From IMG/VR virus record IMGVR_UViG_2541047952_000002: a stretch of DNA of 24,461 bases, one strand, 5' to 3'. Below the pieces are notes generated by a model, which did not search any database, had not been told where the DNA came from, and saw only the letters and a list, made by a program, of their open reading frames with translations. Below, piece after piece: positions 1,242 to 21,554 of the stretch. Position numbers and translations under genes: made by a program. Within the stretch, counting starts at the first letter, position 1, and the number at the start of each line of letters is the position of its first letter. This DNA comes from a virus. Taxonomy: Duplodnaviria > Heunggongvirae > Uroviricota > Caudoviricetes.

Positions 1242-1433
1242 TTATCGTGAGTTTTTAGTACAGATTTTTTTGGATTTACTAATAGTTCCATCATTGCAAA
1301 CGAATTTGCCATCTGAGGTACAGTGAGAAACACCTCCCTTTTTCCCTGAACAGGGATAATTTCTAGCATAGGTAGTTAGTGGGTTTAATAACAAAGAACA
1401 TGACAAAACCACAAAAAATACCTTACCAAGCAT
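1242..1433 (-). CDS. Small secreted Cys-rich protein (63 aa), hypothetical; moron candidate between cI and int
   Basis: ORF with strong RBS (GGGAGGA ~6 nt upstream of ATG at 1431-1433). N-terminal hydrophobic signal-peptide-like segment '[23 protein letters not shown]', then a basic mature part with 4 Cys. AT-rich relative to flanking int. Confidence 0.45.
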
Positions 1434-2042: not shown

Positions 2043-2071
2043 TTGACGATTTCACTGTACGATCGTATGTT
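2043..2071 (+). promoter_or_regulatory. Candidate early lytic promoter (pR-like) in the cI/cox divergent switch region
   Basis: TTGACG (2043-2048), 17-bp spacer, TATGTT (2066-2071), ~70 bp upstream of the cox-like ATG. Region 2025-2143 also contains GTGAA/TTCAC inverted-repeat elements that could be operators. Confidence 0.45.
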
Positions 2072-2143
2072 TATGGTGTTCACAAAATACAAACGATCCG
2101 TATTCGTCCTGATTAATCATCATTAAACGAGGAATGTTGCATC

Positions 2144-2365
2144 ATGAGACCTAACATTTCAATCACTCTTACCACGCCTCATGTGACTATTGAACGCTAT
2201 AGCGAGCTGACAGGGCTGTCCATCGATACCATCAATGACATGTTGGCTGATGGACGCCTTATCCGTCACCGTTTGCGCAAAGATAAAAAACGCGAAAAAG
2301 TGATGATCAACATAGCAGCCATGACCGTTGATGCGCTTTCAGAATGCAATCTAAACCTTAATTAG
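2144..2365 (+). CDS. Cox/Apl-like excisionase and transcriptional regulator (small HTH protein)
   Basis: 73-aa first gene of the early rightward operon, divergent from cI. HTH-like '[26 protein letters not shown]'. Position is identical to P2 cox / 186 apl. Confidence 0.6.
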
Positions 2366-2391
2366 TTCGATTCTGAAATACATCAGAGGCA

Positions 2392-2907
2392 TTGACCATG
2401 TTTGATTACCAAGTTTCCAAACATCCACATTTTGATGAAGCCTGTCGTGCATTCGCACTGCGCCACAATCTGGTGCAACTGGCAGAACGTGCAGGCATGA
2501 ATGTGCAGATTCTGCGGAACAAACTGAACCCAGCTCAACCTCATTTATTAACCGCACCAGAAATTTGGTTGCTTACCGATCTGACTGAAGATTCAACGCT
2601 GGTAGATGGTTTTCTGGCACAGATTCATTGTCTGCCATGTGTTCCGATTAATGAGGTGGCAAAAGAGAAACTACCGCATTACGTCATGAGTGCAACTGCA
2701 GAGATAGGTCGTGTCGCGGCAGGTGCGGTTTCTGGAGATGTAAAAACCAGTGCAGGCCGTCGTGATGCTATCAGCAGCATTAACTCTGTTACACGACTGA
2801 TGGCGCTGGCTGCTGTTTCATTGCAGGCCCGTTTACAGGCTAATCCTGCGATGGCGAGTGCAGTTGATACCATGACCGGCCTTGGTGCTTCATTCGGTTT
2901 GCTGTGA
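2392..2907 (+). CDS. Phage regulatory protein, 186 CII-like (HTH)
   Basis: 171 aa, second gene of the early operon. HTH-like '[19 protein letters not shown]'. Size and position match 186 CII (~169 aa). Confidence 0.55.
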
Positions 2908-2914
2908 GGTGCTT

Positions 2915-3115
2915 ATGCTTACGAAAGAACCATCATTTGCATCGCTGCTGGTTAAACAAAGCCCGGCAATGCACTACGGTCACGGCTGGATCATGGGTGA
3001 GGATGGTAAACGCTGGCATCCGTGCCGTTCACAGGATGAATTGCTGGCAGAACTATCAACGAAAAAACGGGGGAACCAATGGCTATTGAAGGCGCTGCGG
3101 CGACTGTTCCATTAA
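2915..3115 (+). CDS. Hypothetical early-operon protein (66 aa)
   Basis: ORF 2882..3115 trimmed to ATG at 2915 with GAGG upstream. Protein-like composition. Overlaps the next ORF by 37 nt, so one of the two starts may be wrong. Confidence 0.35.
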   Translation: MLTKEPSFASLLVKQSPAMHYGHGWIMGEDGKRWHPCRSQDELLAELSTKKRGNQWLLKALRRLFH

Positions 3116-3420
3116 GACCCGGTGAACGCCTGAATGGACTTAATCATATTGCGGAGTTAAGGGCGAAAGTTTTTGGCCTGAATATTGAGTCAGAGCTTGA
3201 GCGGTTTATTAAAGATATGCGTGATCCACGGGATATCAATAATGAACAAAATAAACGGGCACTGGCTGCCATATTCTTTATGGCAAAAATTCCAGCTGAA
3301 CGTCATAGCATCAGCATTAATGAGCTGACCACTGACGAAAAGCGGGAGTTGATTAAAGCAATGAATCATTTTCGTGCAGTGGTGAGCTTATTTCCCAGAC
3401 GGCTAACCATGCCGAATTAA
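3079..3420 (+). CDS. Hypothetical early-operon protein (113 aa)
   Basis: ORF with GGGGGA upstream of ATG, in operon orientation. No recognisable motif. Confidence 0.45.
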   Translation: MAIEGAAATVPLRPGERLNGLNHIAELRAKVFGLNIESELERFIKDMRDPRDINNEQNKRALAAIFFMAKIPAERHSISINELTTDEKRELIKAMNHFRAVVSLFPRRLTMPN

Positions 3421-3487
3421 CCAACTAATGAAATTAATGGCGTAAACCCGCCGGGCATCCCTTTATCTAAATTCAGGAGAATTGATT

Positions 3488-3721
3488 ATGCGTAATATTG
3501 AAACCCTCTCGACCAAAACCGGACCGGATGACGCAGGGCTTAATATTTTACTGACAGAGGCTCGTCTGGAAGAACGCCGGGCAAGGGCTGAAGCAATGGC
3601 AGCTCGCCTTGATAGCCTGGCGTGTCATATCACATCCCGCCAGCTAACCCACGTCGAAGCGGCAGAACTGCTTCGTGTGACTGCTGAAGCAATCCAGAAC
3701 GAAGTGCAGGAGATCCACTAA
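3488..3721 (+). CDS. Hypothetical early-operon protein (77 aa)
   Basis: ORF 3482..3721 (TTG) trimmed to ATG 3488, 7 nt after AGGAGA (3475-3480). Stop overlaps next start (TAATG). Confidence 0.5.
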   Translation: MRNIETLSTKTGPDDAGLNILLTEARLEERRARAEAMAARLDSLACHITSRQLTHVEAAELLRVTAEAIQNEVQEIH

Positions 3722-3948
3722 TGGCTGATGCAATGGATCTCGTACAGCAGCGCGTTGAAGAAGAACGCCAACGCCATATCCGTGCTGCCCGTGCCAAAAC
3801 GCCGGGCGTGTCCCGCGTGCTTTGCATTGAGTGTGAAGCGCCAATTCCGCCAGCACGCCGCCGTGCCATTCCGGGTGTGCAGCTTTGCATTACCTGTCAG
3901 GAAATCGCAGAGCTGAAAGGCAAACATTACAACGGAGGTGCTGTATGA
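3721..3948 (+). CDS. TraR/DksA-family C4 zinc-finger protein
   Basis: 75 aa with C-x2-C...C-x2-C ('CIECEAPIPPARRRAIPGVQLCITCQ'), typical of the phage/plasmid TraR/DksA zinc-finger family. Translationally coupled to flanking genes. Confidence 0.7.
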   Translation: MADAMDLVQQRVEEERQRHIRAARAKTPGVSRVLCIECEAPIPPARRRAIPGVQLCITCQEIAELKGKHYNGGAV

Positions 3949-4802
3949 GCACCATCCTGAAATGGGCGGGAAATAAAACTGCCATAATGTCCGAACTGAA
4001 AAAACATCTTCCTGCTGGCCCGCGACTGGTTGAACCTTTCGCGGGTTCCTGTGCTGTGATGATGGAGACGGATTATCCCAGCTATCTGGTTGCGGATATT
4101 AATCCTGATTTAATCAACATCTATAAAAAGGTTGCCGCTGATTGTGAATCGTTTATATCTCGCGCCAGAGTTTTATTTAAGGAAGCAAACAGGGAGGTGG
4201 CTTATTACAACATAAGGCAGGAGTTTAATTACTCAACTGAAATTACTGATTTCATGAAAGCGGTATATTTCCTGTATCTCAATCGTCACGGTTACCGTGG
4301 TTTATGTCGCTATAACAAGAGCGGGCATTTCAACATTCCCTACGGTAATTATAAAAATCCGTATTTCCCTGAAAAAGAAATTCGCGCATTTGCAGAAAAG
4401 GCCCAGCGAGCAACGTTTATCTGCGCCAGCTTTGATGAAACGCTGGCGATGTTGAAGGCGGGGGATGTGGTGTATTGCGATCCGCCGTATGACGGTACGT
4501 TTTCCGGCTATCACACTGACGGCTTCACTGAAGATGACCAGTATCACCTGGCATCTGTTCTTGAACATCGGTCATCAGAAGGACATCCGGTCATTGTTTC
4601 TAACAGTGACACATCCCTGATCCGTTCGCTGTATCGCAATTTTACTCACCACTACATCAAGGCAAAACGCAGCATCGGTGTGGCAGCTGGCGAGGGTAAA
4701 TCAGCAACAGAAATCATTGCTGTTTCCGGGCCGCGCTGCTGGGTGGGATTTGATTATTCGCGTGGCGTGGATAGTTCTGCCGTGTACGGAGTACGTGCAT
4801 GA
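3945..4802 (+). CDS. dam: DNA adenine methyltransferase, Dam-like (N6-adenine MTase; GATC specificity inferred)
   Basis: ORF 3885..4802 trimmed to ATG 3945 (GGAGG 6 nt upstream, overlaps preceding stop). Motifs 'LKWAGNK', 'EPFAGS' (AdoMet binding), '[16 protein letters not shown]', 'PYFPE', 'FAEKAQ', 'VVYCDPPY' (catalytic DPPY), 'VSNSDT' are collinear with E. coli Dam as I recall it. Confidence 0.85.
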
Positions 4803-7213
4803 GTCATGCCGATATGAACAACTGCTGCGGCTTTAACGAAGCTGCCGCATCGTTCTCATGGAACAGCCCGAAAAAGGCCATTAACCCTTATCTGGACCCG
4901 GTGGAAGTTGCGCCGGTTTCTACGCTTTCAAACCTGATCACTCTGTACGCTGCCGATAACGAGCAGGAACAGCTGCGCCGTGAGGCGCTGAGTGATCAGG
5001 TCTGGGAGCGTTATTTCTTTAATGAATCCCGTGATCCTGTCCAGCGCGAAATGGAACAGGATAAGCTCATTAGTCGGGCAAAGCTGGCGCATGAGCAGCA
5101 GCGTTTTAATCCGGATATGGTCATTCTGGCGGACGTCAACGCCCAGCCCTCCCATATCAGCAAGCCGCTGATGCAACGTATTGAATATTTCAGCAGCCTG
5201 GGCAGGCCAAAGGCTTATTCCCGCTATTTGCGTGAGACGATTAAGCCATGTCTGGAACGACTGGAGCATGTCCGCGACTGTCAGCTATCCACTTCTTTTC
5301 GCTTTATGGCAAGCCATGAAGGGCTGGATGGCCTGCTTATCCTGCCTGAAATGAGTCAGGATCAGGTGAAGCGCCTGTCTACCCTTGTCGCTGCGCATAT
5401 GAGCATGTGCCTTGATGCCGCTTGTGGTGATTTGTATGCCACCGATGACGTTAAGCCAGAGGAAATCCGCAAAACATGGGAAAAGGTGGCAGCGGAAACC
5501 CTGCGTCTGGATGTTATTCCGCCTGCGTTTGAGCAACTCCGTCGGAAAAGAAACCGCCGTAAACCCGTGCCCTATGAACTCATTCCGGGTTCGTTGGCGC
5601 GTATGTTGTGTGCCGACTGGTGGTATCGGAAATTATGGAAGATGCGTTGCGAATGGCGGGAAGAGCAGTTGCGTGCTGTCTGCCTGGTCAGCAAAAAAGC
5701 ATCCCCCTATGTCAGCTATGAAGCCGTGATGCATAAACGTGAGCAGCGCCGTAAGTCGCTGGAGTTTTTCCGTTCTCATGAACTGGTGAACGAAGACGGC
5801 GACACGCTGGATATGGAAGATGTGGTAAACGCCAGCAGCAGCAACCCGGCGCATCGCCGCAATGAGATGATGGCCTGTGTTAAAGGTCTGGAGCTTATCG
5901 CGGAAATGCGCAGTGACTGCGCCGTTTTCTACACTATCACCTGTCCGTCGCGTTTCCATTCCACGCTCAATAACGGCAGACCCAACCCGACCTGGACAAA
6001 CTCGACGGTAAGACAAAGCAGCGACTATCTGGTCGGCATGTTTGCTGCATTTCGTAAGGCGATGCACAAAGCCGGATTGCGCTGGTATGGCGTGCGGGTG
6101 GCTGAGCCGCATCATGACGGTACAGTTCACTGGCACCTGTTGTGTTTTATGCGCAAAAAAGACCGCCGCGCCATCACTGCATTACTGCGTAAGTTTGCCA
6201 TCCGTGAAGACCGCGAGGAGCTGGGCAATAACACTGGGCCGCGCTTTAAGTCTGAGTTGATTAACCCGCGCAAAGGAACGCCGACAAGCTACATCGCGAA
6301 ATATATCAGTAAGAACATTGACGGGCGTGGTCTGGCTGGCGAGATCAGCAAGGAAACGGGTAAATCTCTGCGTGATAACGCTGAATACGTTAATGCCTGG
6401 GCGTCTCTGCATCGTGTTCAGCAATTCCGCTTCTTTGGCATTCCGGGGCGTCAGGCTTACCGTGAACTGCGATTGCTGGCTGGTCAGGCGGCAAGGCAAC
6501 AGGGTGACAAAAAAGCAGGTGCTCCGGTACTGGATAACCCGCGCCTTGATGCCATTCTGGCTGCTGCTGATGCTGGCTGTTTTGCCACCTACATTATGAA
6601 GCAGGGCGGCGTGTTGGTTCCCCGCAAATATCACTTGATCAGAACCGCTTATGAAATCAACGAAGAGCCGACCGCCTATGGCGATCACGGCATTCGTATT
6701 TATGGCATCTGGTCACCCATTGCAGAGGGCAAGATCTGCACTCATGCAGTGAAGTGGAAAATGGTTCGTAAGGCCGTTGACGTTCAGGAGGCGGCAGCCG
6801 ACCAGGGCGCTTGCGCCCCTTGGACTCGTGGCAATAACTGTCCCCTTGCTGAAAATTTGTACCAACAAGGGAAAGACAAATCAGCTGATGGAGATACCAG
6901 AACGGATATCACCCGCATGGATGACAAGGAGTTGCACGATTACCTGCACAGTATGAGCAAAAAAGAGCGCCGGGAACTGGCTGCAAGGTTACGCCTGGTG
7001 AAACCGAAACGGCGTAAAGACTACAAACAGCGAATTACAGACCATCAGCGACAGCAGCTCGTCTATGAACTGGAGTCCAGAGGATTTAATGGCAGCGAGA
7101 AAGAGGTCGATTTACTCCTTCGCGGCGGCAGTATTCCGTCAGGAGCAGGTCTGCGTATCTTCTATCGGAACCAGCGTTTGCAGGAAGATGATAAGTGGCG
7201 AAACCTGTATTAA
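4799..7213 (+). CDS. A: Replication initiation endonuclease gpA (HUH rolling-circle initiator)
   Basis: 804 aa. Start ATG overlaps dam stop (ATGA). HUH motif '[15 protein letters not shown]' and catalytic tyrosine motif '[11 protein letters not shown]' as in P2 A. Confidence 0.9.
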
Positions 7214-7305
7214 TTACGAGGGTTAACAATTCGTGCTCTTAATAATACCAGGCATATCAGGCTGATGAACGTAAAAAAACGTTTTACATCAGTAAGATTA
7301 TTATA

Positions 7306-7325
7306 TACTGTAAATATAAACAGTG
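7306..7325 (+). promoter_or_regulatory. LexA (SOS) box upstream of the tum/DinI-like module
   Basis: TACTGTAAATATAAACAGTG contains CTGT-N8-ACAG and matches 17 of 20 positions of the consensus TACTGTATATATATACAGTA. It lies 42 bp upstream of ATG 7367, with TTTACA (7283-7288) as a possible -35. Confidence 0.6.
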
Positions 7326-7366
7326 GTTATGTATACAGTATTGCTTGTGGTGTCATAGGAGGAAAG

Positions 7367-7555
7367 ATGCAGGACTATTTTTTGGAGTCTTTGAAGCTCC
7401 AGCGCATTGATTTTTTTCTTAAGCTTGTAGCGGCTAGTGAGTGTAGTGATGAAGAGAAGGGGCTGGCTTTGCAGTGGGTTTCTGAACTGACAGATGAACT
7501 CATGGCAAAAATCAGAAGCCACGAATACAACCGCTCAATGGATGTCATCAGCTGA
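7367..7555 (+). CDS. Hypothetical small protein (62 aa), first gene of the LexA-controlled module; possible Tum-like antirepressor component
   Basis: ORF 7265..7555 trimmed to ATG 7367 preceded by GGAGGA. Position downstream of gene A and behind a LexA box parallels 186 tum. No motif recognised. Confidence 0.4.
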   Translation: MQDYFLESLKLQRIDFFLKLVAASECSDEEKGLALQWVSELTDELMAKIRSHEYNRSMDVIS

Positions 7556-7565
7556 GGGGACTTTT

Positions 7566-7799
7566 ATGCGCATTGAAATAATGATCGATAAAGAGCAGAA
7601 GATTAGCCAGTCTACCCTGGACGCCCTTGAATCCGAGCTTTACCGCAATCTGCGCCCCCTGTATCCCAAAACGGTAATTCGTATCCGTAAAGGTAGCTCT
7701 AACGGTGTGGAACTGACCGGACTGCAACTGGACGAAGAAAGGAAGCAAGTGATGAAAATTATGCAGAAGGTGTGGGAAGACGACAGCTGGCTGCATTAA
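7566..7799 (+). CDS. dinI: DinI-family protein
   Basis: ORF 7494..7799 trimmed to ATG 7566 (GAGGGGA upstream). 'MRIEIMIDKEQKISQSTLDALESELYRNL...' and C-terminal 'KVWEDDSWL' resemble E. coli DinI ('MRIEVTIAK...TWESADDWF'). Confidence 0.7.
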   Translation: MRIEIMIDKEQKISQSTLDALESELYRNLRPLYPKTVIRIRKGSSNGVELTGLQLDEERKQVMKIMQKVWEDDSWLH

Positions 7800-7807
7800 G
7801 AAACGTT

Positions 7808-7837
7808 GCCCCCAAGAGAATTTATTCTGATGGGGGC
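7808..7837. terminator. Hairpin between convergent dinI-like and GNAT genes (probable bidirectional terminator)
   Basis: GCCCCCAAGAGAAT-TT-ATTCTGATGGGGGC forms a long imperfect stem, followed by TAGTTTGGG. Confidence 0.45.
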
Positions 7838-7912
7838 TAGTTTGGGCAATGAGTGAAACAAGGCGTAAGGTGGTCGGCCTGTTGGCAGCGTTGAAAAGCG
7901 AAAGCCGCAATA

Positions 7913-8332
7913 CTATAAATTAGTTTTTATTAGATAGTGCCTTTGTGCTCCTGCTTTAGGGAAATCAGGTAATGACATTTGAAGTATATAACCCTGTTTT
8001 TCATAAAAGGGGAGCGCCTGGAAGCTAAATGTATCGACAAGGCCATGAATACAACCGTTCATCACACCTTCTTTCTCAGCCATGCTCATAAGTTTGCTAC
8101 CCAAACCGCCACTCCGTGTTGATTCACTCACCCAAAGATAATCAATACACAGCCATGGGCCTTTCCTGTTCGCAATTAATCCACCTACCATCTCGCCGAT
8201 TTCATTTCTGCAGTAAACACCGATCTGTCCATTTTTACTAAAATCGATAAACTGAGCATTATAGCTTCTTAGCCCAGCTAACAGTTCTTCTCTATCATAT
8301 TCAGTAACTTTATTAACTACTTGAATGTCCAT
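7913..8332 (-). CDS. GNAT-family N-acetyltransferase (139 aa), cargo gene
   Basis: Acetyl-CoA-binding-type motif '[17 protein letters not shown]' (R/Q-x-x-G-x-G/A), then 'FYEKQGY'. AT-rich, opposite strand to neighbours. Confidence 0.7.
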
Positions 8333-8548: not shown

Positions 8549-8680
8549 CGCATGAATCTGCATGATCGTTTGAGGATCGTTTTTGCTAAGGCCCACCAGA
8601 ACTGGCGGGCTTTTGCGTAGATCATGCAGGTGCATGAAAACCACTACATAAAGCGGGCAGGCGTGGCGGGGATACGAGCG
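8549..8680. other. Candidate cos/packaging region: inverted repeats, terminator-like hairpin and a cos-like GGCGTGGCGGGGA motif
   Basis: GGCGTGGCGGGGA (8660-8672) matches the first 13 nt of the 186 cohesive end as I remember it (GGCGTGGCGGGGAAAGCAT; P2 GGCGAGGCGGGGAAAGCAC), then diverges. Upstream are a 17-nt imperfect inverted repeat (CATGAATCTGCATGATC 8551-8567 / GATCATGCAGGTGCATG 8620-8636) and a GC hairpin plus T-run (8591-8614). Confidence 0.3.
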
Positions 8681-8803
8681 CGCGCACGTGGCTTCTAGAC
8701 ATATATCAGAGGCTTTGTTTCAATCGTAATTTATTAAATTGATTATGTTTGAATGATTTGTCATATTCTATAAGTGTTCAAGATGGCAATAAGAGGTGTC
8801 TTA

Positions 8804-10405
8804 ATGTTTGAAATTCCGAAGGCTGATGGTTCTAGCTTTGAATTGAAGTTGGCTCCTGGAGAGGTTGTTTTCTTGTTAGGACCAAATGGTTCCGGAAAGT
8901 CTTCTATAATTGATTTTCTATACAAAAAATATCCTAATAGATTTGAGAAAATAATTGCGCATAGACAAAATTGGATTCAGTCTAACAGATCTAACGTATC
9001 CAATCATGAGAGTCATCAAACATCAGGTTATATTAAGAGTTGGGATTCGCAGGAGGAGTCAAGATACAAAGATGATTATTCCGGTCGTAGAACAGAGATC
9101 TTACTGAACAAAATAATCTCTGCAGAGAATCATGCAGCCAGAACTTTTGTCAATAATTTCTCCCTAGCTTCTCGCGAGGGGCGTGGTAATTTAACTCTTA
9201 CGGAAACACCAGTTGAGAAAATTAATAGATGCCTGAATGAAGCTTTTATTAATATTACGATAAGAATAGATGATTCGGATTCTTTGTTGGTAAGTCGCAA
9301 TGGCTCTGATGAATATAGCTTGGCTCAGCTTTCTGACGGAGAAAGAAATGCAATATTTATTGCAATTGCCATTTTTACAGCCCCAGACGGCGCCTTTTTT
9401 TTAATCGATGAGCCAGAGAGGCATTTGCATCCTTCAATATCTCATTCGTTGATTAAATCTCTTTTAAATGAGCGCCCCGATTGTGGATATGTAATATCCA
9501 CACATGATTTATCTTTGCCATCAGCAGTACCTCATTCCAGAGTGTTGTTGCTGAGAGATTGCGTGTATGAAAATATGCGACCAGTTCGTTGGTATATAGA
9601 CGCAATTGACTCATTGGCGGAAATTGATGAGAGGCTTCGAGAAGACATACTTGGGTCAAGGAAAAAAATAATCTTTGTTGAGGGTAATACATCATCAAGC
9701 TTAGACCAGAAGCTATACTCGATAATTTTTCCAGGTTATTCGGTAATACCAAAAGCTAGTTGCGATTATGTCGAGCGTTCTGTGGATGGTCTGAGAGAGT
9801 CGGAAAATCTTCATCATGTAATTCCATATGGTATTATTGATAATGATAATAAACCTGAACGACAGGTTTCAAATCTTGAAATGAAAGGGGTTTATTCTTT
9901 AAATGTGCACTCAATTGAATCAATATACTATCATCCGGAATTAATTTTAAACGTAATTAATAATTATAAGGATTCTCAAAATATATCGGACCCCGATGCA
10001 TTATATGCGCAGTTGTGTGACGAGTCATTGTCCATGCTTTCCGAGCACAAAGAAAGACTATGCTGTAGAGCAATAGAGAAAGCCATTAGGTCTAAGCTAT
10101 TTTCGAATTTGCCAACTTTGAGAAGTATTGAAGCGGGGAATGATGTTAATATAAATATTAACGTTGGTGATTTTTTGAGAGAAGAAATTGTCTTTTTTGA
10201 AAACTGTCTACGTCAGCAAGATCTCATCAGTTTAGTCGAAAAATATCCAATTCGTGAAACTGCTTATATCGCTAAGGTGCATAAGCTATTGGGGTATTCA
10301 ACGCGTCAACTTTACGAGCATAATCTTTTACGCCTTGTAACGTCGAATTCTGAGGTGAAAAATATTGCCAAAAGGCTGATTGGCAATATTTGCAATGTTA
10401 TATGA
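8804..10405 (+). CDS. Solitary ABC-type ATPase fused to a Toprim-like nuclease domain (OLD-family / PARIS AriAB-like candidate anti-phage protein)
   Basis: ORF 8774..10405 (GTG) trimmed to ATG 8804, 7 nt after AAGAGG. Walker A 'GPNGSGKS', ABC signature-like 'LSDGERN', Walker B plus His 'FFLIDEPERHLHPS'. C-terminal half has 'KKIIFVEGNTSS' (Toprim glutamate) and 'GIIDNDNK' (DxD). Strongly AT-rich. Confidence 0.8.
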   Translation: MFEIPKADGSSFELKLAPGEVVFLLGPNGSGKSSIIDFLYKKYPNRFEKIIAHRQNWIQSNRSNVSNHESHQTSGYIKSWDSQEESRYKDDYSGRRTEILLNKIISAENHAARTFVNNFSLASREGRGNLTLTETPVEKINRCLNEAFINITIRIDDSDSLLVSRNGSDEYSLAQLSDGERNAIFIAIAIFTAPDGAFFLIDEPERHLHPSISHSLIKSLLNERPDCGYVISTHDLSLPSAVPHSRVLLLRDCVYENMRPVRWYIDAIDSLAEIDERLREDILGSRKKIIFVEGNTSSSLDQKLYSIIFPGYSVIPKASCDYVERSVDGLRESENLHHVIPYGIIDNDNKPERQVSNLEMKGVYSLNVHSIESIYYHPELILNVINNYKDSQNISDPDALYAQLCDESLSMLSEHKERLCCRAIEKAIRSKLFSNLPTLRSIEAGNDVNININVGDFLREEIVFFENCLRQQDLISLVEKYPIRETAYIAKVHKLLGYSTRQLYEHNLLRLVTSNSEVKNIAKRLIGNICNVI

Positions 10406-19005: not shown

Positions 19006-19659
19006 CTAATCCATAAATGGTTCAAGAATTGGACCTAATTCAGCATCTTCCATAATGATCCATCTGCAAAATGATGAAAAAGCTGCGTCTCTTTTTATCA
19101 TCATCTTCATTTTTTCAATTAAGTATTTTTTTTGTTCTGTTGGAGTATCTTCTTCATAATATTCATTAATATTTTTAATTAGTTTTTGGGTTGTTTTCAC
19201 TACTTGAGTACGAAGTGCCGCAGAAGTTAATTTTTTACTCATGGTATGATCGCTATTATATACTTTCTCAAGTAACTCTGCGGTCGTCTGCGTTTCAATA
19301 TCATTAAATAGTGCTGTTACTGTTATTTTTTTTGCTTTATAAGAATATCCTGGGAGTAATTTTACTCGATCCCATACCTTTTCTTTACAGCAATCAAGAA
19401 TGTTGTCATATTTTGATAGTTTTATATTGTTACATCTGGAACATGATAGATATAAATTATCCCAATCAAAAGCTCTTTCCACATCATCACCCTTGGGTTT
19501 AAAATGTTCAATGTTTATATCCAAAGGGTTCTTTGTTTCGCAAATGTAACATTTTCCATAAAAGCATTCCTGTAGTGCTTCATGTACATCAGCACCATCA
19601 TAACGTGCTTTCTTGGAAAGAGACTTTGGTGCAGGATATGTTCTATTAACCTTGAACAT
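19006..19659 (-). CDS. HNH endonuclease (217 aa), second gene of an ATPase + HNH pair (Septu PtuB-like)
   Basis: HNH-type motif 'CYICETKNPLDINIEHFKPK...FDWDNLYLSCSRCNNIK' (C-x2-C ... H ... N ... C-x2-C-N). Start ATG overlaps the upstream ATPase stop by 1 nt (TAATG). Very AT-rich. Confidence 0.8.
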   Translation of the reverse strand: MFKVNRTYPAPKSLSKKARYDGADVHEALQECFYGKCYICETKNPLDINIEHFKPKGDDVERAFDWDNLYLSCSRCNNIKLSKYDNILDCCKEKVWDRVKLLPGYSYKAKKITVTALFNDIETQTTAELLEKVYNSDHTMSKKLTSAALRTQVVKTTQKLIKNINEYYEEDTPTEQKKYLIEKMKMMIKRDAAFSSFCRWIIMEDAELGPILEPFMD

Positions 19660-20888
19660 TATTTCTCCTGAGAATTTGCTTTTTTATATTTTAGTATCTG
19701 CATTTTTGCATAGTCAATAAATGCACTTGCATGGATGTCCATGGATTCATCTAAAGGTGCTAAGGATTGTATTATGTTATTGGCAGTTTCAATATTGTTG
19801 TTGTTAATATTGTCAATAATATCTTGAAGTTGTTCTAACTTATCTGAAAGAACTTTAGATATTGGACTTACTCCGAATAATTCTTGAAGGATGATACCAT
19901 AAGAATATGAAGACACATCACTAATTTTCGCGTTGGTCGATAGATCATAAATGATGGCATTTGTGACGGATGTAACAACAAACGGAGAATGTGTAGTGAC
20001 AATGAATTGTACTTTAGGAAAGGAGTGACTAAAAAATCTTAATATTTGCTTTTGCAAAGAAACATGTAAATGCGCATCTATTTCATCAATAAAAATAATA
20101 CCTTCGATACTGTCAGGTGTTAAACCCCACATTTCTACTCTCATTATTAAGTCAGCGTAAATTCTCAATATTGATGAGTGGCCAGAAGATAATGTTTGAA
20201 AAGTAAACTTATCTTTACCATCTTGATTGAGATAAAATTTTCCTTCGTTACTATCAAACGTTAGTAAGAGGTTTTTATCTTCAAAAAGTTCCTGCATATC
20301 AGTTTCAATTTTATCAAACCATTTCTGTATCCGCTGAGCTTTCTTATGGTCATTATCAAAAGAAATTGCATAGCTCTGAGCTGTTTTTAAACTAACCAAA
20401 TAATTCTCAAAGAAATCATCACCATCTACTTCATTAGAAAAATGTGATTTTTCATTAATTAAAGCCGATAGCCTAGGAACGGCAATTGGCGAGGTAATTG
20501 ATGCTTCACGTAGAGCTTTGTGAAATCTCAATAGTGAACGTGTTTCACCTTCTTTTTCTTTTGTTTCTATTCTAATGGCTTTTAATTGTTCAATTTTTAA
20601 TTCAATGTTTTTTATTTCTTCAGAATAAAAGTTGTAATTAACGTCGTCACGCCCGCCGTTATTTAAGTGATATTTGTAGGACTCTAACGTATTGTATAAA
20701 TTATTGATGTTATGATCATTAGGTCTATCTATCTTATTTTTAAGGAAATCATAAATAGATCTAATAAAACTAGTTTTTCCACACCCGTTACCACCAGTTA
20801 TTATGAGATTTTTACCGTCAAGCAATAAGTTTGCTGTCTTATTAGTGTATGGAATTGGAGCATAAATTTCATTTATTGATGTAAGCAT
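19659..20888 (-). CDS. ABC-type (AAA_15/AAA_21-like) ATPase (410 aa), first gene of an ATPase + HNH pair (Septu PtuA-like)
   Basis: ORF 19659..20987 trimmed to ATG at 20886-20888 (AAGGGA 7 nt upstream); the longer form would overlap the V start. Walker A 'GGNGCGKTS', 'LSSGHSSIL', Walker B plus His 'IIFIDEIDAHLHVS', 'FIVTTHSPF'. Confidence 0.8.
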   Translation of the reverse strand: MLTSINEIYAPIPYTNKTANLLLDGKNLIITGGNGCGKTSFIRSIYDFLKNKIDRPNDHNINNLYNTLESYKYHLNNGGRDDVNYNFYSEEIKNIELKIEQLKAIRIETKEKEGETRSLLRFHKALREASITSPIAVPRLSALINEKSHFSNEVDGDDFFENYLVSLKTAQSYAISFDNDHKKAQRIQKWFDKIETDMQELFEDKNLLLTFDSNEGKFYLNQDGKDKFTFQTLSSGHSSILRIYADLIMRVEMWGLTPDSIEGIIFIDEIDAHLHVSLQKQILRFFSHSFPKVQFIVTTHSPFVVTSVTNAIIYDLSTNAKISDVSSYSYGIILQELFGVSPISKVLSDKLEQLQDIIDNINNNNIETANNIIQSLAPLDESMDIHASAFIDYAKMQILKYKKANSQEK

Positions 20889-20897
20889 ATATTCCCT

Positions 20898-20915
20898 TGT
20901 ATCGTTAACAGTACA
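20898..20915 (+). promoter_or_regulatory. Candidate PV late-promoter Ogr/B box (TGT-N12-ACA)
   Basis: TGTATCGTTAACAGTACA lies ~60 bp upstream of the V start, with an A/T-rich -10 candidate (GATAATAAT) downstream. It starts 10 bp from the PtuA-like start codon on the opposite strand. Confidence 0.45.
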
Positions 20916-20975
20916 ACTACAACACTGATAATAATACAACTTATTGAGATACAGTTCACCTTTAAGGGGGGAAGG

Positions 20976-21554
20976 GTGAACGCACAATTAACCGAAATCA
21001 TGCGCCTTATCACCAACCTGATCCGCACTGGGGTAGTCACCGAAGTGGACAGGGAAAACTGGCTTTGCCGAGTGAAAACGGGCGAGCTTGAAACTAACTG
21101 GATCAGTTGGCTGACGCTGCGTGCAGGAAATGCCCGGACATGGTGGCGACCATCGGAAGGTGAGCAGGTGGTGCTGCTGAGTCTGGGGGGCAATCTGGAA
21201 ACGGCCTTTGCGCTGCCCGCTGTCTATTCGAATCAGTTTGCGCCACCGTCGACGTCGGCGGACGCCTGTGTGACAGAATATCCTGACGGTGGCTGGTTTG
21301 AATACGAACCTGCCACCGGGCGCTGGTATGTCAGGGGCATCAAATCCATGGTCATTGAGGCTGCCGATAACATCACCCTGAAAACCAGTGAGTTTGTGCT
21401 GGAGGCTGACCGCACGCGTATTAACAGCGAAGTGGTGATCAATGGTGGCGTTACCCAGGGCGGCGGAGCGATGAGCTCTAACGGGATTGTGGTTGATGCG
21501 CATCAGCATACTGGCGTCCTGAAAGGCGGCGATACAACCGGAGGCCCGGTATGA
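20976..21554 (+). CDS. V: Baseplate spike/assembly protein gpV
   Basis: 192 aa, GTG start with AAGGGGGG RBS. 'WLTLRAGNARTWWRPSEGEQV' and 'HQHTG...GGDTTGGP' resemble P2 V. Confidence 0.85.
   Translation: MNAQLTEIMRLITNLIRTGVVTEVDRENWLCRVKTGELETNWISWLTLRAGNARTWWRPSEGEQVVLLSLGGNLETAFALPAVYSNQFAPPSTSADACVTEYPDGGWFEYEPATGRWYVRGIKSMVIEAADNITLKTSEFVLEADRTRINSEVVINGGVTQGGGAMSSNGIVVDAHQHTGVLKGGDTTGGPV

Follow-up and report, generated by a model that had tools for sequence, protein, structure and literature searches.

The window, by which we mean the whole stretch of 24,461 nucleotides that was analysed, constitutes the left portion of a P2-like prophage of the Elveevirus/Fels-2 type. Over 1.6 kb around the adenine methylase gene (dam) that is the subject of this analysis, the DNA is 97% identical to that of the Klebsiella phages Kp48xx, KP12 and 4LV2017. 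Phages 4LV2017 and Cartapus belong to the genus Elveevirus of the Peduoviridae, and both carry the gene under the annotation DNA adenine methylase. An integrase gene (1–1209) and a gene for a 186-type CI repressor (1449–2024) lie on the minus strand. On the plus strand there follow a small apl-like gene (2144–2365), cII (2392–2907; PF06892), a fil-like ORF (2882–3115), genes for DUF5347 (3079–3420) and DUF2732 (3482–3721) proteins, a gene for a TraR/DksA C4 zinc-finger protein (3721–3948; PF01258, E = 3e-11; TIGR02419, 65.8 bits; phrog_54), dam itself (3945–4802) and the gene for the gpA rolling-circle initiator (4799–7213; PF05840, Phage_GPA, E = 1e-125), which has a GGAG at 4788–4791. The counterpart of the fil-like ORF in Cartapus is annotated as DUF2724. 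The counterpart of the P2/186 nick site, the predicted origin, maps to approximately position 6821, within gpA. Scans of the whole window against Rfam and for tRNAs gave no matches.

The order of the apl-like gene, cII, the fil-like ORF, the DUF2732 gene, the TraR gene and then A is that of the pR operon of phage 186. On the strength of this gene order, a pR-like σ70 promoter in the cI/apl switch (2043–2071, plus strand; TTGACG-17-TATGTT) is the presumed source of the dam transcript. Upstream of dam it is the sole promoter-like site that points rightward, and none was found within 2072–4802.

The dam ORF runs on the plus strand from an ATG at 3945 to a TGA at 4802 and encodes 285 amino acids. 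Its Shine–Dalgarno sequence, GGAGG (3934–3938), lies 6 nt 5′ of the ATG, within the 3′ end of the TraR gene. The earlier note had described a 285-residue Dam-like protein linked by overlapping stop and start codons to a TraR/DksA gene and to initiator A, and this description is borne out at both junctions, each of which is an ATGA (3945–3948 and 4799–4802), as well as by the strong Dam-family profile and structure matches given below. The range assigned to it, 3721–4802, includes dam but spans two genes. A longer reading of dam from a TTG at 3885 has no support from the N-termini of homologues. Two minus-strand ORFs (3630–3890 and 4302–4568) that overlap the strongly conserved plus-strand gene were judged to be spurious, as was an antisense promoter-like site at 4375–4348, there being five promoter-like sites compared with 10.7 in shuffled sequence.

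The GC content of dam is 46.6% (GC3 0.47), compared with 56.6% for the TraR gene, 52.9% (GC3 0.58) for gpA and 55–60% for the late genes; the two obvious imported islands in the window have 32–39%. The view that the gene has a backbone-like composition is therefore right in so far as dam stands well above these islands, but not in that it falls below the TraR gene, gpA and the late genes. No promoter-like or terminator-like site flanks dam on the plus strand, and the gene shares codons with both of its neighbours. Together with the distance in GC content from the islands, this makes the earlier statement that dam does not look like a recent moron a fair one, yet the gene is dispensable and its position is mosaic among relatives, as described below.

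The protein belongs to the Dam family (D12 class) of N6-adenine methyltransferases. It matches PF02086 over the entire profile (positions 1–253 of 253) with 259.8 bits against a cut-off of 22 (E = 4e-77), and TIGR00571 ('dam') with 322.6 bits against a cut-off of 114.85 (E = 2e-96). The best solved relatives are the structures of E. coli Dam (EcoDam; E = 6.5e-74 over residues 4–263; PDB entry 2g1p, E = 6.6e-74), followed by DpnM and then T4 Dam. Comparison with EcoDam (PDB entries 2G1P and 4GOL) indicates the same fold family and the same order of motifs over the alignable residues 4–263, but approximately half of the residues are identical, five residues are deleted after the DPPY motif, the C-terminal tail is some 14 residues longer and the gene is located in the lytic operon of a prophage. 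The NCBIfam equivalog model for host Dam (NF008152) is not reached, the score being 289.4 bits where 441 would be required. Because this cut-off is missed and because dam is a prophage gene situated between the TraR gene and gpA, the protein is not an orthologue of chromosomal Dam, and the earlier designation of it as a Dam orthologue is not upheld.

Conservation was assessed with 66 distinct Dam proteins of 60–99% identity extracted from related loci. The catalytic DPPY (motif IV, residues 179–182; codons 4479–4490) is invariant in all 66. We note in passing that its codons GAT-CCG themselves carry a GATC site. The AdoMet-binding motif I begins with EPFAGS at residue 30 (codons 4032–4049) and reads F32-A-G34-S-C36, compared with FxGxG in EcoDam; the phenylalanine and first glycine are kept and the second glycine is a cysteine in 66 of 66 members. 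T4 Dam presumably also lacks the second glycine, so that the cysteine is probably tolerated. The dN/dS values relative to related sequences are 0.09–0.20 across the whole protein, which indicates purifying selection. The window protein is thus an orphan of the Dam family that looks functional and belongs to a phage clade.

The residues by which Dam reads its target are known from EcoDam, in which the DNA contact of R124 is the first and the most discriminating, Y119 intercalates, N120 provides a base hydrogen bond, the third base pair is read by L122 and P134 and the first by K9 and Y138 (Horton et al., PMC4417163). Six of these seven residues are identical in the window protein, namely K6, Y117, L120, R122, P132 and Y136 (equivalent to K9, Y119, L122, R124, P134 and Y138, respectively); the seventh, N120, is Arg118. 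The DNA-reading hairpin, which includes Y117, L120 and R122, comprises 16 residues from residue 109 (codons 4269–4316). The six contact residues are kept in 65–66 of the 66 distinct relatives, as are DPPY and the FxG of motif I. Specificity for GATC, which the earlier note had drawn from likeness to E. coli Dam, now has the additional backing of these conserved reading residues, both here and in the 66 relatives, and appears to be well supported. The substitutions fixed in this clade relative to EcoDam (G39C, which falls in motif I, N120R and R137N, in 97–100% of the 66 members), together with the failure to reach the host-Dam equivalog model, could be taken as signs of an enzyme that methylates a sequence other than GATC or sites in addition to it. 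We consider this very improbable, since all of the GATC-discriminating residues (R124, L122/P134 and K9/Y138) are conserved. Furthermore, the solved relatives EcoDam, DpnM and T4 Dam are all GATC enzymes, and T4 Dam has what we take to be a serine at the position of N120.

The genes flanking dam are those of TraR and gpA, with no adjacent restriction endonuclease gene, and the best PADLOC model is that for an orphan methyltransferase (oMTase PDLC03729, 369.5 bits). Dam is not part of a restriction–modification system. Its description as a phage-encoded orphan methylase, also put forward earlier, agrees with these findings and with its location in a P2-like prophage. The nucleases found elsewhere in the window are components of PARIS and Septu systems according to PADLOC.

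The overlap of the dam stop codon with the A start codon raises the question of whether dam might be retained solely to deliver ribosomes to gpA, as a catalytically dead passenger. The record for phage 186 states that translation of A appears to need translation to the end of orf84, the gene upstream, and in relatives of the window the last gene before A likewise overlaps or abuts its start (ATGA, GTGA or TAATG). A possible RNA hairpin over the gpA start codon, weakly indicated at 4781–4801 (plus strand; CGUGUACG / loop GAGUA / CGUGCAUG), would pair the AUG of gpA with the last part of the dam reading frame. Against this explanation, the low dN/dS extends over the entire protein, and there is no variation at the catalytic and DNA-contact residues. 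Moreover, coupling does not call for a particular gene, or for any gene at all, as the TraR gene directly precedes A in eight of the loci surveyed. The likelihood that dam is such a passenger is, in our view, negligible. The hairpin is present in both the minimum free-energy and centroid folds, but the regional z-score is just −1.9, and it is kept in close relatives while absent from Fels-2-type junctions; the idea of a conserved RNA hairpin enforcing coupling from dam to A was dropped on these grounds.

The survey of relatives consisted of 240 IMG/VR loci fetched around three types of gpA, 235 of which have a TraR-like gene. These 235, with both anchors present, were catalogued: 77 with the gpA type of the window, 79 of P2 type and 79 of 186 type. 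Among the 77, the interval between the TraR gene (the left anchor) and gpA (the right anchor) shows 12 architectures, and Dam is intact in 66, absent from ten and split in one. The most frequent arrangement is Dam alone (39 loci), followed by an ASCH/DUF3850 gene and Dam (11), nothing between the TraR gene and A (eight), Dam and a DpdA-like gene (seven) and Dam and a PAPS-reductase-like gene (five). The remaining arrangements are represented by one locus each: ASCH, Dam and DpdA-like; exonuclease and Dam; Dam and a C5 cytosine methylase; ASCH only; PAPS-reductase-like only; Dam split into two ORFs; and an ASCH gene interrupted by IS1 and followed by Dam. These additional genes were assigned using Pfam and PHROGs (PF12961/PF04266, PF01507, PF00145, PF00929 and phrog_887). 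The DpdA-like gene matches phrog_887 ('queuine tRNA-ribosyltransferase') with E = 2e-96 and has no Pfam or PDB match. Dam is absent from all 158 loci of the P2 and 186 types (79 of each).

DNA-modifying enzymes are over-represented in the interval overall. Because relatives show presence or absence of the gene and exchange of genes between conserved anchors, Dam is a dispensable accessory cassette, old and well integrated, in a variable slot. P2 and 186 share the anchors, the operon and the tight coupling to A with the window. In P2 the slot holds only orf83 (DUF5405) between the zinc-finger gene and A, and in 186 it holds orf82–84, which encode an exonuclease-like protein, a DUF5405 protein and the PAPS-reductase-like orf84 product; neither has Dam.

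The cassettes found in this interval (Dam, or Dam with a DpdA-like gene, a PAPS-reductase-like gene or a C5 methylase gene) are swapped among relatives, and their translation is chained to that of the initiator. The interval between TraR and gpA may be a slot given over to replication-coupled DNA modification and, as such, the counter-defence equivalent of the gpA–gpQ defence hotspot; this is a tentative proposal, and we think it rather more apt to prove wrong than right. If it were true, modification capacity would be produced in step with replication, and some prophages would stack two DNA modifications, for example m6A and 7-deazaguanine. No description of such a slot was found in the searchable literature, an absence which is not proof of novelty. 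The paper on the P2 hotspot covers the gpA–gpQ locus alone and never mentions Dam (PMC9122126), and methyltransferases figure solely as auxiliary genes in a survey of P2-like viruses from 2026 (PMC13100340). The variants with DpdA-like, PAPS-reductase-like and C5 methylase genes make the slot a compact place in which to seek phage modification or anti-restriction genes.

We consider the most probable role of the window protein to be that of an active GATC-specific orphan Dam which operates only in the lytic cycle and tops up the host Dam so that the DNA of phage progeny is fully methylated, and we assign this reading a probability of roughly 70%. By analogy with phage 186, dam would be transcribed with the early lytic operon and repressed by CI in the lysogen. 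Dam would be translated just ahead of gpA, so that the enzyme would appear as rolling-circle replication starts, and by supplementing a limiting host Dam it would allow new phage DNA to become fully methylated at GATC before packaging. Host Dam has been found to be limiting for multicopy DNA, msDNA being sensitive to DpnI only upon overexpression of Dam (Bobonis et al., bioRxiv 10.1101/2020.06.22.160242), and it is for this reason that a phage copy of the gene could bring about full methylation of the progeny. The benefit might be twofold: progeny DNA would resist methylation-sensitive restriction at GATC-containing sites, and it would not be left in the unmethylated or hemimethylated states on which MutH and SeqA act. 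The company of DpdA-like and C5 methylase genes in relatives fits such a self-modification role.

Some observations sit less easily with the topping-up of host Dam. Dam is already present in the hosts concerned (E. coli, Klebsiella and Salmonella), which means that any benefit must be quantitative, and a strong need for the gene is difficult to reconcile with its absence from ten of 77 close relatives and from P2-type and 186-type phages. GATC is mildly under-represented in the window, with 77 sites and an observed/expected ratio of 0.75. The spacing of these sites does not differ from simulation: the three closest sites lie within 56 bp (P = 0.62), and three triplets fall within 100 bp compared with 3.0 expected. 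Two groups of sites that had been considered as signs of control by Dam, one upstream of the predicted origin (6637/6683/6733) and the other at 8564/8575/8620, were accordingly attributed to chance. As the sites are only mildly under-represented and are unclustered, nothing in the phage sequence points to a particular reliance on methylation. Carrying dam could also be a liability, given that abortive infection by retron-Sen2 is triggered by overexpressed Dam of E. coli, Salmonella and phage P1 (bioRxiv 10.1101/2020.06.22.160242).

The position of dam in the early operon, adjoining the gene for the replication initiator, would also suit an enzyme directed at the host, in which a lytic burst of Dam over-methylates the chromosome and abolishes the hemimethylation used by SeqA to sequester oriC and by MutH to tell the strands apart, upsetting the control of host replication to the advantage of the phage. 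Overproduction of Dam in E. coli perturbs the synchrony of initiation and mismatch repair, and phage 186 has host-directed early genes (fil and dhr) in the same operon. Many relatives, however, are without Dam, and the alternative genes of the slot (DpdA-like and C5 methylase) act on phage DNA, for which self-modification is the better fit. We therefore regard an attack on host methylation as quite improbable.

A regulatory function deserves somewhat more weight, although we still think it unlikely. According to this explanation, the phage Dam alters methylation at certain GATC sites of phage or host promoters, as in the lysis–lysogeny switch or the control of excision, and thereby sets gene expression rather than protecting DNA. 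Two GATC sites (2061 and 2095) are located in the 119 bp cI/apl switch, one of them abutting the −10 hexamer of the pR-like promoter, and a review reports that excision of SopE-φ is favoured by Dam methylation (PMC7380047). Nevertheless, the two switch sites are equally present in loci with Dam (five) and without Dam (three), a comparison that is confined to the eight loci sharing the immunity region of the window, and we no longer treat them as linked to Dam. Host Dam would in any case methylate these sites, and the spacing of GATC across the window is, as noted above, at the level expected by chance. In addition, no expression of dam is expected in the lysogen: since its operon corresponds to the CI-repressed early operon of 186, a role for the enzyme in the lysogen seems unlikely. 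The choice between protection and regulation bears on why many enterobacterial prophages duplicate a function of their host, and the completion of methylation on progeny DNA is the reading that we prefer.

The gene is of an already known kind that is common upstream of the initiator in P2-like prophages of E. coli, Klebsiella and Salmonella. A block consisting of the TraR gene and dam gives some match in 1241 of 5426 complete E. coli genomes (about 23%), in 1231 of them at a coverage of at least 80%. Most of these copies are 95–99% identical, and the listed records give the name DNA adenine methylase. The exact window protein is present in NCBI under the same name, its 90%-identity cluster has 4038 members, and homologues occur in 1129 phage records. 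The value of this analysis for annotation is consequently small, as the public names are already correct and approximately a quarter of complete E. coli genomes carry the gene.

Fels-2, Cartapus (CARTA_42) and 4LV2017 have the same arrangement of TraR, dam and gpA, with Dam proteins of 282–286 amino acids. The window Dam shares 97% amino-acid identity with those of Cartapus and 4LV2017 and 73% with that of Fels-2; the differences from these proteins are allelic, with nothing of substance. In Fels-2 of Salmonella LT2 the three genes are STM2731 (zinc finger), STM2730 (methylase-like) and STM2729 (gpA), and the annotators of this record pointed to the Ec67 methylase for STM2730. One member of the 90%-identity cluster is likewise named 'retron EC67 DNA adenine methylase', and a 1990 paper by Hsu and coworkers (PNAS 87:9454) states in its title, as cited, that retron Ec67 encodes a Dam methylase function. 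A link to the Ec67 retron by way of the reverse transcriptase of 4LV2017 was rejected, as the latter is a 309-residue protein with a separate partner gene and not the RT–Toprim fusion of Ec67. A prophage 'Dam homolog' of the E. coli ST131 strain EC958, M.EcoMIV, has been reported to be silent by RT-PCR (PMC4659465). The connection of the window gene to M.EcoMIV was also dropped, because two 50 kb stretches at the expected position are without a P2-like prophage and the sole prophage edge there is Mu-like.

The Dam proteins of more distant phages, P1 Dmt, T4 Dam and φ80 DamL, are likewise D12-class orphan adenine methylases of phages whose hosts are Dam+. P1 Dmt has approximately 36% identity to the window Dam and the T4-like proteins have 23–26%, in each case in another genomic context, and P1 Dmt, unlike the window Dam, is a larger fusion protein.

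The cI/apl switch (2043-2098) holds two GATC sites, one of which (2061) directly precedes the pR-like promoter's -10 hexamer. Each of the two sits inside a similar motif, ACGATCGTAT and ACGATCCGTAT, and both are kept in eight related loci, in those with dam and those without it alike. Three further GATC sites (8564, 8575 and 8620) fall in the stretch 8558-8629, approximately 150 bp ahead of the PARIS gene; a triplet of this kind is no more than chance would give. This same stretch contains a 10 bp inverted repeat, CTGCATGATC ... GATCATGCAG, whose arms flank on both sides a terminator-like hairpin (8591-8610) that is followed by TTTT.

Inspection of the interval between the TraR-like gene and gpA in related IMG/VR loci indicates several occupants other than dam. 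These include PAPS-reductase-like proteins of 336 and 439 residues (L032, 2425-3432, and L076, 2176-3492, respectively), which are of the same type as orf84 of phage 186, a C5 cytosine DNA methylase of 394 residues (L062, 2326-3507) and an RNase T/DnaQ-type exonuclease (L045, 2021-2605). Decay of the slot was noted in two relatives: in L040 (2648-3504) two ORFs stand in place of the single dam reading frame, and in L051 (1571-2647) an IS1 element (InsA/InsB) lies within an ASCH gene directly upstream of dam.

We note that some relatives carry a protein of 250-285 residues between dam (or DUF5405) and gpA. It precedes gpA in L030 (2662-3489), L084 (2752-3501) and ten other related loci. Its sole match is to phrog_887, 'queuine tRNA-ribosyltransferase' (E = 2e-96); no match was found in Pfam or among PDB sequences. 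The protein probably belongs to the DpdA-like DNA guanine transglycosylases, in which case some P2-like prophages would carry 7-deazaguanine in their DNA.

Within gene A, the sequence GCGCCCCTTGGACTCGTGGCAATAACTGT (6795-6830) aligns with the nick region of the P2 origin, GCGCCTCGGAGTCCTGTCAATAACTGT, and the replication origin of this phage is therefore predicted at approximately position 6821. Beyond gpA and before the PARIS gene, the stretch 7265-8332 holds three items: a 96-residue ORF (7265-7555), for which a family match was sought and none found; an overlapping DinI-family ORF (7494-7799; PF06183), DinI-like being also the annotation of the Tum genes of phage 186; and, on the minus strand, a GNAT acetyltransferase (7913-8332; 39.5% GC).

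The PARIS-like gene (8774-10405, plus strand; 37% GC) encodes an ABC-type ATPase of 543 residues that carries a DUF4435 domain at its C-terminus and matches the fused AriA-AriB (PARIS) model PDLC02982 (E = 8e-58). It falls within the gpA-gpQ interval, which Rousset et al. (2022; PMC9122126) reported as a hotspot of defence genes. A two-gene Septu system (19006-20987, minus strand), consists of PtuA (441 residues, E = 2e-138) and PtuB, an HNH protein (216 residues, E = 6e-99). With 32% GC, it is an island inserted between late genes whose GC content is 55-60%. Between the integrase and cI genes, a 63-residue ORF (1242-1433, minus strand) lies in a stretch of approximately 35% GC and has no match in Pfam; with its signal-peptide-like N-terminus and several cysteines, it may be a cargo gene for a small secreted protein or lipoprotein.
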